Source: an uncultured Phycisphaerales bacterium
GTDB lineage: Bacteria; Planctomycetota; Phycisphaerae; Tepidisphaerales; Tepidisphaeraceae
Length of the DNA: 64,000 nt
Direction of reading: 5' to 3'
Assembly (NCBI GenBank): GCA_963758525.1
Contig: CAVWVQ010000003.1
Span: 992,001 to 1,056,000, forward strand
Positions 11,754-39,708 of the stretch are shown here, one piece after another; the first letter of the stretch is position 1, and each line of letters starts with the position of its first letter. The notes under the pieces are model-generated. The model did not search any database and was not told the origin of the DNA. It saw only the letters and a program-made list of their open reading frames with translations. The translations under genes were made by a program, and so were the position numbers.

Positions 11754-14700
11754 ATGGGGCGCAGAAACAAGGCGGCCAAAAAAGGCCCAACCCGTAAAAA
11801 GCAGCCCACGACATCTTTGGGAGGCGACGCATTCAGGCGACGCCGGTTCATTGTTGAGCCTCTGGAGGATCGGTTTCTGTTGAGCGGGAGTCACGATCCG
11901 GCTCTTACAGCGGCGATCCAGGGCGCGCTCTCCACCAGCGATGCAACCGGATTGTCCGCTTGGGCGCACCGGCTTACCGACCCGACTGTTCTGGGTCAGA
12001 ACCTTCCCATCATCGGCTCCGGGCTCGAGACGGCCGTGGACCCGCAGGCGCAGCTGAACACAGTCCTCTCAGGGATCAGCGGCTCATATACCACGCTGAC
12101 CGATTTGCAGGCTGCGTTGCAGGCGACGCCGGGCATTACCGTATCCGCGGTCCGCAACAACGCCAACGATTTGGAATTGGATCTGGGCATCACCAGCACG
12201 GGCACCGCAACAGTGCCGATTGACGCGTCGCTAGGCGCCAACTTCAACGCGACAGGCTCACTGGTCGTAGCGACCTCGCTCCACTTCCAATTCACCATTG
12301 GCGCTTATTACGACACCACTGCCAGCACCGCGGTGGCATACGTGGTGGCGAATAATGACAATCTCTCCCTCAGCTTTAACGCCACCTCGGCCAGTCTTGG
12401 AGGCACTGCCCAGCTCGGGTTTGTCAACCTGCAAGTCTCACAGGCATCGGTGAATTTTTCTCCGCAATTCACTTTCACCCTGCAGCAGCAGGATGCCATC
12501 AACGGTTCGGATCGCGTGTCATTCGATGCGTTGAACGCGGATTCGCTCGGCACGTTGATGACCACTACCTTGAGTCAGTCCGCGCCTGCCACCCTTACGG
12601 CCAGCGTCAGCACTTCGTTGGCGCCGACGGCCAAGCAGATCACGCTGACGTGGGCCGATGTTACCGACGCATCGACTGTGACATCGTCCGCTACCACCGA
12701 TCCAACGCTGGCGGCGCTCAATATCCTGTCGGGCATCAGCCCGACCGCGTTCTCCTCGGGCTTGGATCAGGCAGTCGCCGTTCTCGACGCGGCTGCCACC
12801 GACAATATGACCGCCAATGTGCTGCAGACCAGCCTGCCGATTGTCGGCCAGTCATTGTCCAGCCTGGTGAATTTCACGACTTTCTATCAAACCTATCTGA
12901 CGAAGTTCACGGACTCGGTCACCAATACCACTACCAACGTCACTACGAATACTTTCAATAGCGATTCCCAGTTGTTGACGCTGCTGCAGGGCATACCGAA
13001 TGTCGGGACGGGAAACGTGAGTGAGGCCGTTTCTGGGTCACGGTTGGTGTACACCCTGACTCTCCCCGAGACTGTCACGGTCACCGAACCGCTTTCGCTT
13101 AATGTAGGTTCGGCGTTGAATCTCAACGTTGCCGGGACGGTGAACGTCAGTGTTGCGACCACCACCCAGTTCTCATTTGGCGTCGACGCCGGCACGGGAA
13201 CTTTCTTCATCGCGGCTCCGACCAAGCCGGTATTTCAGGCCACGGTTACCGCTTCCACAAGTCTGACGGCGGCGGCTTCACTGGGCTTCCTCTCGGTGAA
13301 TGTGACCGACGGCACGGTTTCGGCGACGGTGCAGGGGAGCATCTCGTTGACCGACCCCGCCACGGATAGTCCCGCAAGTCCGGGAATCATCACCAGTTCC
13401 GAGCTTGCCTCGGCGAACTTCTCGACGCTGATCGGCGTCGGGCTGAGCGGCTCGGCCTCCGCATCGTTGCCACTGAGCGTTGGCGCAGGTGCTGTCGGGG
13501 GGATCTCCCCCGGCACTCTGGCGATCAGCTGGCCGGACGTAACCAGCCCGTCGACTTTCACCGTCGACACATCGGGAATTTCGCAATTTCTGGATTTCAA
13601 TCAATTGTCTGCGTCTTCGATCCTCACTTATCTCGATGCGCTGCCCAACGTGCTCTCCCAACTCGGGGGCACCTCCGGATTGGGCCATTCGATTCCGGTC
13701 ATCGGCTCGAGCCTCGGATCTGCCATCGATTTCGGGAGCAAGCTGACCACAGCTCTGAGCGGATTGTCATCGGCCACCAGTATCCAGGACCTGGTGACGC
13801 AGCTTCAGAGCGCGCTGCCTGGCGGGTCGACGGTGACTTTTGATCCGGCTACAGACCAGTTGGATTTCACCCTTGCACTGACCGATTCGTATACGGCGAA
13901 CAGCCCCGATTCCGCCGCGTGGTCCATCGACGAATCCCTGTTGAGCGGCGCATTGGGCTTTCATGCATCCGGCACCGCGCCGCTGACGGGTTCGATCGGT
14001 CTGCGGTTCGAAGCCGGCGTGCAACTTTCGCCGGATCTGCTGAGCGACGGTACTTCGACCGCTTCGACCACCGTCGATCCCCTCAGCCAGGTGTATGTCT
14101 ACACGGGCAGCAGCACCGATCCGACCGTTGGAAGCAGTCTCTCGGCGAGCCTCTCCGTGCAGGGAACCATCAATGCGTCGGCGACGCTGGCTTTTGCCTC
14201 GATCGGAGTGAGCGCCGGTACGCTCACGATCGCGGGCACGAACAGTTCAGGGGTCGTCACTCCCGGCACCCCCGCCACCGCCAGCCTCGTGATCGGGAGC
14301 GGCGCGGCGGGCAGCAAGCAGACGCTGGCGAACATCCTGGCAAATCCGTCGTCGCTGTTCGGCGGTTTTAATTTCAACGGCGGCGCGATGGTGACGCTGC
14401 CATTGACGGGCATTCCTCGCTCCACGAATACGCCTGACGTAGCCCCGGAAATTGACGTGAGTTGGCCGAACATCACGACGGTTCCGGTGCCCAGCACGAT
14501 GGGTCTCGACTCCACCAATCTGAACCCGCTGGCGAATTTCGACGCCAGCGACTTCACGAGCGGGCTGACCTCCGTGATCGGCTTGATCACCCAGTGGGGC
14601 AACCTCCCGCTGCTCAATCAAAATATCCCGCTGATCAACGAGCCGATCAGCAAAATACTCTCGTATGCAAACGACGTGGTGAGCGTATTCAACTCGATTT

Positions 14701-38700: not shown

Positions 38701-39708
38701 CTCAGCAGCGGCATCGCAACCTTGACAACCGCGACGATTCCCACGGGCAGCAACTCGATCAAGGCGGTCTACGGCGGAGATACCAACTTCACCGCCAGCA
38801 CCTCCAATTCTCTCAGCCAGACCGTGACGCAGGCGGCAAGCACTGTGACGGTGAGCGGCGTGCCCGGCGTGTTCGGGCAGAACGTGACGCTGACGGCAAC
38901 GCTCACTGCCGTGAGCCCCAGCACCGGCACCCCGACCGGCGTCGTCACCTTCAAAGACGTAAGCACCGTGCTTGGAACCGGAACACTCAGCGGCGGCGTT
39001 GCGACGTTTGCCTCCAACGCGCTGAGCATCGGCAGCCATTCGATCACCGCCGTCTACGCCGGCGACACCAACTTCACCGCCAGCACGTCGGGCGCCTTCA
39101 ACCAGGCGATCTCGCAGGCGGGGACGACCACCGCGTTGACCAAGAGTGCGACTGCGTCCCTTAGGTTCGGCCAGAGCGTGACGTTCACGGCGACGATCGC
39201 CGTGGTGACCCCCGGCGCCGGAACGCCTACCGGCGTCGTCACTTTCATGGACGGCGCGACCGCACTCGGAACCGGTACGCTCAGCAACGGGATTGCCACC
39301 CTCACGACCGCGACGCTCCCGACCGGCAGCAATTCCATCACGGCCGTCTACGGCGGCGACAGCAACTTCCTCGTAAGCATGTCCAATGCCCTTGCCCAGA
39401 CCGTCACCCAGGCGGCAACGACCACCACGCTGACCAAAAACACCACCGCGGCCGTCAAGTTCGGCACGAGCGTGACGTTCACCGCGACGCTCGCCGCCGT
39501 GAGTCCCGGCTCCGGCATGCCGACGGGCATCGTTACTTTCGAGGATGGAACCACCGTTCTCGGCACCGGGACGCTCAGCAACGGCGTGGTGACCTTCACG
39601 AGCACCCAACTCCCAACCGGCAGCAACTCGATCAAGGCCGCCTATGGCGGCGACACGAATTTCACCGCCAGCACGTCGGGGACACTCAGTCAGACGGTGA
39701 CGTCCTGA
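11754..39708 (+). CDS. Giant (~9,300 aa) modular adhesin/surface protein (frameshift at 18948): leader, RTX-like repeats, propeller-like repeats, 5 parallel beta-helix modules, CBM-like, 3 LamG, 2 malectin, NIDO-like, 20 Big_3_5 domains
   Basis: VEPLEDRFLLS leader; ORF 11754 ends ...RYSGSAWAAL and ORF 18622 resumes AGATSGSGVS, matching the neighbouring repeat WSALGGSASGNGIS; PLAYYRL..TWQHVAFT (LamG); PNGTYTIRLHFA..RVFDV (malectin). Confidence 0.88.
16900..17800 (+). repeat. RTX-like Gly/Asn/Asp nonapeptide repeats (Ca-binding beta-roll)
   Basis: Tandem I.AG.G.[DN] units, e.g. INAGGGNDT, ITAGNGNDT, ITAGAGADQ. Confidence 0.8.
24340..32540 (+). repeat. Near-identical intragenic tandem repeat, 3219-bp (1073-codon) period, about 2.5 copies
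   Basis: Identical shadow ORFs recur at 24381/27600/30819 and 26248/29467. Confidence 0.95.
33871..39705 (+). repeat. Array of 20 Big_3_5 Ig-like domains (~285-300 bp each) with higher-order duplications
   Basis: Repeating TPTG.V.F.DG...LGT..L / ..AVYGGD.NF; near-identical blocks offset by 1761 bp (34428/36189) and 1743 bp (36732/38475). Confidence 0.92.

Follow-up and report, generated by a model that had tools for sequence, protein, structure and literature searches.

The route by which planctomycetes release their numerous huge proteins, and the function of the N-terminal motif, are the questions raised by this locus, and they were addressed here through the co-occurrence of a leader with an export cassette. 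Planctomycetota are enriched for proteins that exceed 5,000 aa and carry Ig, cadherin, RTX or dockerin repeats (PMC11573180; 10.1101/2023.11.21.568195), so the size alone of the protein described below is ordinary, and the accessible text of these two reports gives no export route for such proteins. In the window, a stretch of 64,000 nucleotides from an uncultured Phycisphaerales bacterium, a giant gene of ~9,318 codons is annotated as two ORFs (11754..39708, + strand). An ORF split is in itself ordinary. A sequence-only reading had taken the two for one adhesin gene divided by a single indel, with an unexplained route of secretion. On balance, the explanation favored here as a whole is that of one gene, split by an assembly error, whose leader likely routes the ~9,318-aa protein to a cassette without an ABC transporter 2 Mb away. 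If true, this would be a new protein secretion route handling some of the largest bacterial proteins.

Both ORFs were found at the positions given earlier, namely ORF A at 11754-19316 (2520 aa) and ORF B at 18622-39708 (7028 aa). Using a self-trained hexamer model, the coding signal was found to pass from frame A to frame B with the best switch at 18947 (range 18944-18990); scores before this point were positive in frame A and negative in frame B, and beyond it the signs were exchanged. The in-frame halves contribute 2398 and 6919 aa, which together with a single residue for the junction make 9,318 aa. Moreover, eight homologs (the G007 and G033 frames and proteins P0125, P0130, P0133, P0126, P0131 and P0135) crossed the junction unbroken in one frame. 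P0125 (7348 aa) was collinear with the giant protein from the leader to residue ~7370, and P0130 and P0133 measured 7779 and 7996 aa. The junction reads TGG GCC GCG CTG C GCC GGC GCC ACC. At the break, each of the two closest homologs has a single residue, giving LGAG in G007 and LVAG in P0131, a pattern that agrees with a loss of two bases and not with a gain of one. The read-through proposed at 18945-18951 was supported, and most likely ORFs A and B form a single intact gene that an assembly error has divided. The domain after the junction was matched in 4 of 61 close-relative genomes, the own genome counted, and in neither of the two same-genus genomes.

The break lies at CTGCGCC beside a GCGC site (18945..18951, + strand), where two bases were most likely lost in assembly. 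At least 563 frameshift-like ORF pairs were counted in the genome, or 8.7 per 100 kb, by a detector that missed the giant-gene junction at its threshold and included false positives such as a real gene boundary near 60574. This density predicts ~2.4 breaks in 28 kb, and the giant gene, with one, has fewer. GCGC was present at 313 of 429 well-located switch points (110 expected by chance; 116 without GCGC), and the top hexamer at switch points was CTGCGC, as at the giant-gene junction (98 versus 11.9 expected). A class I tRNA synthetase gene was likewise split at CTGCGC, and the M50 gene of the cassette was split at a GCGC site, its 85%-identical homologs being whole. ORFs that appear EF-G-, PNPase- and ClpB-like by their motifs were also split at GCGC. 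It is therefore highly probable that the break is an assembly artefact, not biology, and one of hundreds of motif-linked errors. In the proposed course of events, a long-read basecalling error next to a modified GCGC site would have dropped the two bases, and methylation at GCGC is a rather likely cause of this error. The genome holds one C5 methyltransferase, itself split, inside a restriction island, and modification-linked errors are described in the accessible text of one report as mainly mismatches, not indels (PMC10687267). Of the three sequencing runs, none registered as RNA, two have no contig spanning 18948 and the third is of low depth in that bin and has no listed piece at the position, and over a frameshift-dense 20-kb stretch no near-identical run contig was found across any predicted break. 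Four indel rows in that stretch were discarded as repeat-like spots or as lying 16 nt from a contig end. With hundreds of motif-linked false frameshifts, "broken gene" calls in this assembly deserve distrust.

Two other accounts of the break were considered. A real frameshift, whether through a recent mutation that inactivated the gene, through phase variation or through programmed recoding, would leave a 2,520-aa product with little or no full-length protein. Giant adhesin genes are often inactivated, and no read covers 18948. However, the junction bears the top error hexamer of the assembly, essential genes are broken alike, the single break falls below the expected number, and the remaining 28 kb of the gene contain no stop and no further break. 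In addition, no slippery XXXYYYZ heptamer or homopolymer run of four or more was found within 18901-19000, and no repeat tract occurs at the break, so a real frameshift is considered very improbable. That ORF B is a separate gene with its own start, exported separately, could draw on GTG/TTG codons at 19030, 19234 and 19342 that might serve as starts in frame B, but the break interrupts a single repeat domain that is unbroken in all eight homologs, ORF A would finish with 122 non-coding-like residues, and ORF B would be leaderless; this account is hardly credible.

The protein encoded by the single restored gene carries a basic N-terminal leader (11754..11891, + strand, as for all further parts of this gene), which ends in the LEPR-XLL / Planc_extracel motif with HMM matches at 11835-11888. 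The leader passed the LEPR-XLL model NF012209 with 19.3-20 bits (19.3 on the first 100 aa) against a cut-off of 17. With Planc_extracel PF07595 it scored 23.1-24.6 bits against a gathering threshold of 25.5 and was the top match in the genome. The leader has an arginine run followed by the charged motif, without a hydrophobic h-region. It was found on ~70 ORFs of the genome, and a hydropathy survey of the genome's leaders found a hydrophobic stretch near just 2 of 68.

The leader is followed by about five modules of ~290 aa (11889..16520), each a helical bundle with long amphipathic antiparallel strands and without a match in Pfam. A model of the N-terminal 960 aa reached pLDDT 86.5, and fold searches with the whole 960-aa query returned no PDB match at E ≤0.001 (best Z 6.8, none ≥8). 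A comparison with bridge-like lipid-transfer (beta-groove) proteins, made for residues 46-1590, gave LPD-3 at a weak E of 0.057, and a search of the ESM Atlas gave unnamed clusters alone, at low recognition. The two faces of the strands were 63% and 10% hydrophobic, a contrast inflated because the more hydrophobic face was chosen for each strand.

Next come RTX-like Ca-binding nonapeptide repeats (16900..17700, residues ~1750-1975; PF00353, 96.8 bits in 8 stretches) and a propeller-like repeat region (W-x-x-L-G...G-I-S) spanning the break (18435..19610), with 31-48% identity to the unbroken homologs. Parallel beta-helix (NosD/Beta_helix) blocks, a carbohydrate-binding-like jelly-roll segment and Kre9/KNH Ig-like domains occupy 19630..24070. 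A tandem 3,219-bp unit of LamG, beta-helix and malectin is present in ~2.6 copies (24082..32580), which start at 24082, 27301 and 30520 and are 96-98% identical, the third lacking malectin. A choice-of-anchor-Q-like stretch, below its cut-off, and further beta domains (32580..33870) lead to a stalk of exactly 20 Big_3_5 Ig domains (33874..39705), after the last of which the chain ends directly; the next gene starts only 19 bp further on. Matches suggesting an RTX toxin or a neurotoxin receptor-binding identity fell far below or under the cut-offs, reflected the RTX and LamG folds, and were rejected. The RTX-like repeats, beta-helices, lectin-like domains and 20 Ig domains reported earlier were thus borne out by Pfam and NCBIfam. 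The name adhesin derives from these domains; the product is predicted to be an extracellular and likely glycan-binding filament. As the sequence-only reading had stated, no C-terminal barrel, PEP-CTERM or dockerin was matched (Pfam and NCBIfam), and no transmembrane segment was found (maximum Kyte-Doolittle 19-mer, 1.5). NCBIfam likewise gave no retention module.

The same reading had left the secretion route unexplained, which does not stand in that form, as the leader is a named motif and the genome contains an ABC-less cassette of TolC/HlyD type that co-occurs with it. The cassette (G000:C3, 3.092-3.101 Mb; L035:8702-16557, all minus strand) comprises genes for HlyD, GAF-HlyD, a PqqD/RRE-M50-HlyD fusion and a short SecA_DEAD protein, and the locus contains no ABC transporter. 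Its M50 and short SecA genes are each split by one frame break, and nine TolC-family loci lie elsewhere in the genome, none beside the cassette. The M50 motifs HExxH and NxNPxxxxDG were invariant or nearly so in 70 sequences. The model of the N-domain of the M50 fusion resembled the leader-binding domains TbiB1, lasso B1 and PqqD (target TM 0.63-0.67, weak E-values). In an uncontrolled prediction, a complex of the RRE (1-135) with the leader scored 0.08 against a mark of 0.32, and this was weighed neither way.

Among Planctomycetota, the leader is nearly confined to genomes with the cassette. The M50 fusion was found in 56 of 201 genomes, and with scoring limited to at most 37-41 candidates per genome the leader was found in 37 of these 56 versus 3 of the 145 others (union of three scorings), counts that treat related genomes as separate, kin not being independent. 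By scoring, NF012209 found the leader in 26 genomes (25 with M50), PF07595 in 9 (7 with M50) and a purpose-made alignment in 34, all with M50 and including all 13 not used in building it. Under the same limit on candidates, 19 of the 56 cassette genomes gave no leader match, and the three leader-positive genomes outside them gave no M50 match. In at least eight of these genomes, leader genes and the M50 gene were no more than ~12 kb apart.

Furthermore, a giant leader gene heads the cassette operon on six alphaproteobacterial plasmids, from Methylosinus, Pseudosulfitobacter, Thalassospira, Pontibrevibacter, Mesorhizobium and Azospirillum, and shares it with the three adaptor domains and often TolC. 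The plasmid match H20 has a 16,000-aa gene upstream of the cassette, and H4, H7 and H13 were counted neither way, since upstream of them the stretch is unannotated or reaches the edge of the record and shows no annotated giant. In Magnetospirillum and Phyllobacterium, whose M50 relatives are distant, no leader-bearing neighbor was found within the stretch examined around these relatives. As annotated, the operons of Thalassospira, Azospirillum and Variovorax include no SecA, and a motor step is therefore not a general feature. In the main texts of the open literature, the leader names appear in four papers, and no listed paper was found on the leader-cassette link or combining four of M50, HlyD, RRE, PqqD and SecA. 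Linkage in other genomes does not prove use of the cassette by the giant protein; co-occurrence and operon linkage together make the cassette its probable export route.

In the mechanism proposed, the RRE domain of the M50 fusion would bind the leader, the intramembrane M50 protease would then clip it, and the short SecA would push the chain, still unfolded and led by its N-terminus, out by way of the adaptors and a TolC; jointly, these details stand at about an even chance. One cassette could serve the ~70 leader-bearing proteins in trans. Outside the cell, the RTX and beta-helix parts would fold with calcium, the LamG and malectin domains would bind glycans, and the Ig stalk would exit last and serve as a spacer. 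Lacking an anchor motif, the protein would either be released or stay at the surface through non-covalent contacts. More tentatively, LEPR-XLL at the N-terminus may address proteins to an ABC-less secretion system not described before, made up of the RRE-M50-adaptor fusion, the GAF-adaptor, the adaptor, the short SecA and TolC, which takes its cargo N-terminus first. In planctomycetes, one such cassette might be a general secretory pathway for ~70 unlinked surface proteins, with a new kind of hydrophobic beta-groove domain at the distal tip of the giant.

The gene could also be intact with a leader that acts as an unusual Sec/T2SS-type signal or as a folding/holdase tag, the protein leaving by Sec and a type II or outer-membrane route and the cassette being co-inherited for processing or sensing. 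A canonical SecA is intact in the genome, the cassette is not adjacent to the giant gene, and no TolC lies beside the cassette here. In the accessible text of the relevant reports, the Chlorobium LEPRxLL giants are periplasmic in partner-free cells, which fits a two-step route (10.64898/2026.03.19.712371), and GAF-HlyD is taken as regulatory (Kamneva 2015, PMC4452313). The missing h-region in the giant's leader and in 66 of 68 paralogs, the adaptor domains and often TolC in one operon with a giant gene, and the near-restriction of the leader to cassette genomes render this route unlikely. Export directed by a C-terminal signal, as in LapA or SiiE, with a canonical RTX-type T1SS (HlyB/HlyD/TolC) as the exporter, would suit the RTX repeats, the Ig stalk, the TolC-family genes and the several ABC exporters present. 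However, no HlyD or LssB-type protein came close to its family cut-off. The best matches to the two models used, TIGR01843 and TIGR03375, were 60.6 bits against 208.65 and 313 against 693, in a genome 91% complete and frameshift-rich. The window had been said to lack T1SS genes, and none occurred among the 32 ORFs scanned; the genome-wide search for HlyB/HlyD/TolC or other exporters yielded, besides the nine TolC-family loci, the ABC-less cassette and no canonical HlyB/HlyD. Moreover, the RTX block sits at about one fifth of the 9,318-aa chain, away from the C-terminus (in each of the three full-length homologs it falls within the first 40% of the chain), and the C-terminus is a plain 20th Ig domain that varies among homologs. 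A canonical T1SS is thus quite improbable, and export through the cassette remains the preferred reading.

Among the closest known systems are the LEPR-XLL proteins, such as Cag_663 and Cag_665 of Chlorobium chlorochromatii (10.64898/2026.03.19.712371). According to the accessible part of that source, these two resemble the giant protein in their leader motif at the N-terminus, in their giant size and in having beta-helices together with Ca-binding repeats, and they have no classical signal. The model of Cag_663 given there shows an extended N-terminal beta-sheet whose hydrophobic cleft is reminiscent, at the level of the models, of the amphipathic strands in the present N-terminal region. The same text proposes SapC/TolC/HlyD for export, describes the giants as without known transport signals and leaves M50 unmentioned. 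Unlike them, the present giant adds LamG/malectin tandem units and a C-terminal stalk of 20 Ig domains. Kamneva, Poudel and Ward (2015) described a locus of secondary SecA_DEAD, M50-HlyD, GAF-HlyD and HlyD, for which the main text, as far as accessible, names no substrate or leader (PMC4452313). In this genome, too, all four genes stand in one run with no ABC transporter among them, but the PqqD/RRE domain on the M50 protein was identified in the present analysis, and the cassette, being unlinked from the giant gene, would act in trans.

The T1SS-exported RTX adhesins LapA, SiiE and MpIBP resemble the giant protein in their RTX repeats, long Ig extender, glycan-binding domains and probable TolC exit. 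Their order is inverted in the giant, where signal and RTX lie on the N-terminal side and the stalk is C-terminal, and no HlyB/HlyD was found; N-terminus-first export by the cassette would explain this reversal. Leader-directed RiPP systems (peptidase-containing ABC transporters; lasso B1/B2) have in common with the cassette a short N-terminal leader, an RRE-fold reader and a fused protease. In contrast to these systems, the cargo here is 300-13,000 aa and not a small peptide, and the M50 protease is fused to a periplasmic adaptor with no ABC domain.

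In this study, the giant gene (11754..39708, forward strand; about 9,318 aa) was resolved into ORF A (11754-19316) and ORF B (18622-39708), both present where the sequence-only reading had placed them. The junction sequence was ...GCG CTG C GCC GGC GCC ACC..., at which no slippery heptamer or run was found, and no read contig spanned the break site at 18948. A hexamer model trained on the host genome (6.47 Mb in six contigs, 90.9% complete, with the window on the 5.04-Mb contig) preferred frame A to 18947 and frame B beyond, with the best switch at 18947 (range 18944-18990). ORF A ends in 122 codons, and ORF B begins with 109, of out-of-frame filler; the in-frame halves of the giant protein comprised 2398 and 6919 aa. 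Moreover, alignment with homologs upheld the proposal of one gene split by a single break. The domain just 3' of the break was matched in 4 of 61 related genomes, the host included; in genome G007, a 501-residue alignment (46% identity) ran straight across the junction with one residue at the break position, and the homolog in genome G033 also crossed it in one frame. A search with residues 46-1005 against 1.84 billion representative proteins gave 162 matches, the best 150 of which were examined; among the 149 non-self proteins listed, six extended to the junction, all unbroken there. The unbroken homologs included full-length proteins of 7348, 7779 and 7996 aa, and the homolog P0125 was collinear with the giant protein over a stretch beginning at the leader and ending near residue 7370. 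Because homologs cross the junction unbroken, this is a single-chain family. The G033 homolog (L012/L013, G033:C2 78.5-101.4 kb; two-contig assembly) lies in about six overlapping ORFs, with breaks elsewhere than at this junction.

Genome-wide scoring of overlapping same-strand ORF pairs for a frameshift signature gave 563 pairs, or 8.7 per 100 kb, from which about 2.4 are expected in 28 kb; the detector's calls include false positives, and the giant-gene junction fell short of its threshold. GCGC occurred at 313 of 429 well-located switch points versus 110 in flanking controls, and the most enriched hexamer, CTGCGC (98 versus 11.9), also occupies 18945-18950 at the giant-gene junction. A class I tRNA synthetase was broken at CTGCGC, and GCGC breaks were also found in ORFs that we take, by their motifs, to be EF-G-, PNPase- and ClpB-like. 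Furthermore, 3 of 9 TolC-family loci were split, two of these at GCGC, and the M50 gene of an export cassette was split at a GCGC site, its 85%-identical homologs being whole (730 aa). Breaks in such genes are unlikely in a living cell. A family 2 glycosyltransferase (41395-42703, reverse strand) is split at GCGC near 42292; the Pfam match of a class III aminotransferase (7396-8499, forward strand) ends at position 361 of 403, and its tail may be frameshifted. One short-read contig of read run X1 is one base short of the assembly at GCGCGCG (L040:16926), 16 nt from the contig end. Motif-linked long-read errors, mainly mismatches, have been documented (PMC10687267). A long-read platform together with base modification is, we infer, the source of the breaks. 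The genome has a C5 methyltransferase gene, itself split, in a restriction-modification island (L041 3730-7677; G000:C3 1.63 Mb), with a second, presumably methyltransferase-like ORF and a presumably Vsr-like ORF. We hold it highly probable that the giant gene is real and its split false.

The domains listed in the sequence-only reading were confirmed, as was the lack of a TM segment, barrel, PEP-CTERM and dockerin in the giant protein. The leader (residues 1-46) is basic, lacks an h-region and scores above the LEPR-XLL (NF012209) and slightly below the Planc_extracel (PF07595) cut-off. About five modules of no Pfam family follow (residues 46-1590); a model of the first 960 aa (75 sequences; pLDDT 86.5) showed helical bundles and strands of up to 21 residues, predicted to be hydrophobic on one face and Thr/Ser-rich on the other, and had no clear PDB match. 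Next come RTX repeats (residues 1750-1975), a propeller-like region containing the break, beta-helix blocks, about 2.6 near-identical copies of a 3,219-bp unit (LamG, beta-helix, malectin) and 20 Big_3_5 domains extending to the stop codon. RTX lay in the N-terminal 40% of the three full-length homologs, and Big_3_5 was found in none of the six homologs checked. C-terminal ends differed: P0125 and G033 finish in a dockerin-like segment, whereas P0130 and P0133 have low-complexity tails. A role as a glycan-binding adhesin or matrix filament is suggested by the LamG, malectin, beta-helix and Ig domains; as to anchoring, the most economical view is that the protein would be retained non-covalently or released. 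The neighbours are polysaccharide synthesis and export genes (1-11441 and 39728-60666: UDP-sugar dehydrogenase, GT2/GT4/GT28, Wzm/Wzt-type ABC exporter, PMT-like membrane glycosyltransferase, methyltransferases), with a 1,494-aa sulfotransferase-methyltransferase-GT2-GT4 fusion at 51078-55562; Ser plus Thr make up 24% of the giant protein, which could be glycosylated. Upstream lies a second LEPR-XLL gene (4911-7386, forward strand) with two Big_3_5 domains at its end and a frame break near 5247. In the host genome, 68 ORFs fitted a strict leader pattern and 92 a looser one, versus 14 in reversed controls; about ten leader genes run in tandem at G000:C3 4.957-5.008 Mb (L036, L037), many with terminal Big_3_5 domains, as in the giant. 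Close homologs of one host gene carry names that indicate Tepidisphaeraceae (Phycisphaerae), and the PEP-CTERM-like tails among the host's proteins, like its roughly 70 leader proteins, are in keeping with a planctomycete.

The secretion route had been called unexplained, which held insofar as models of a canonical T1SS scored far under cut-off in the host genome, and gave way insofar as an ABC-less HlyD-type cassette is present, leader-linked in other genomes. In order, its genes encode HlyD, GAF-HlyD, a small four-helix protein, PqqD-M50-HlyD and short SecA, the last being a second SecA_DEAD gene adjoining the M50 gene at C3 3.093 Mb. The four-helix gene (23S_rRNA_IVP) is at L035:13170-13919, a squalene-hopene-cyclase-like repeat protein (L035:7592-8608) comes after the short SecA, and DUF3467, which in other genomes often belongs to the cassette operon, is found on contig C2 of the host. 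The M50 catalytic residues were invariant in 70 aligned sequences, and the modelled N-domain of the M50 fusion resembled leader-binding RRE structures, with weak E-values. The cassette would act in trans, because the nearest leader gene is 37 kb away and the giant gene 2 Mb away.

Of 201 Planctomycetota genomes sampled in a single draw, 56 carried the M50 fusion. NF012209 matched in 26 genomes (M50 in 25), PF07595 in nine (M50 in seven) and our own leader alignment in 34, all with M50, including 13 of 13 outside the alignment-building set. With the three models combined, leaders occurred in 37 of 56 genomes with the fusion versus 3 of 145 without, counts in which kin are not independent; the pattern persisted within families (2 of 7 for both in f18, 4 of 5 for both in f12). 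No more than about 12 kb separated a leader gene from the M50 gene in G159, G117, G207, G229, G249, G161, G232 and G177. Moreover, 62 plasmid records matched the M50 protein, and in 6 of the 12 examined a giant gene (4,000-12,900 aa) was directly upstream of the cassette in the same direction, with the leader at its start in all six, three lacking such annotation; four others were uninformative, and two were distant loci without a leader gene. In the Azospirillum giant, DUF4347 is preceded by a variant leader, and Escherichia and Citrobacter plasmids (H37-H50) carry distant (28%) relatives of the M50-adaptor fusion. SecA was not in the annotation of three cassette operons (Thalassospira, Azospirillum and Variovorax; L049, L053, L058), and the energy source may differ between cassette subfamilies.

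Huge proteins are described as common in Planctomycetota (PMC11573180), and the leader is an already named HMM. By gene content, the host cassette is the locus of Kamneva 2015, whose main text describes it without a named substrate (PMC4452313). For Chlorobium LEPRxLL giants, SapC/TolC/HlyD export was proposed in a 2026 preprint and, in the accessible text of that source, the motif was not treated as a signal (10.64898/2026.03.19.712371). No paper tying the leader to the cassette was found in a search that excluded subscription journals and supplements. New with this locus are the phylum-wide presence/absence test, the putative service of one cassette in trans to many substrates and an account of why the gene appears split.

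Export of the giant protein through the ABC-less cassette is likely. The RRE domain would read the leader and the M50 protease would remove it; the chain would pass N-terminus first through the three adaptors and a TolC, driven by the short SecA or some other energy source. In LapA and SiiE, the domain order is opposite to that of the giant protein, in which RTX lies near the signal and the stalk comes last; this inversion would be accounted for by export that proceeds N-terminus first.
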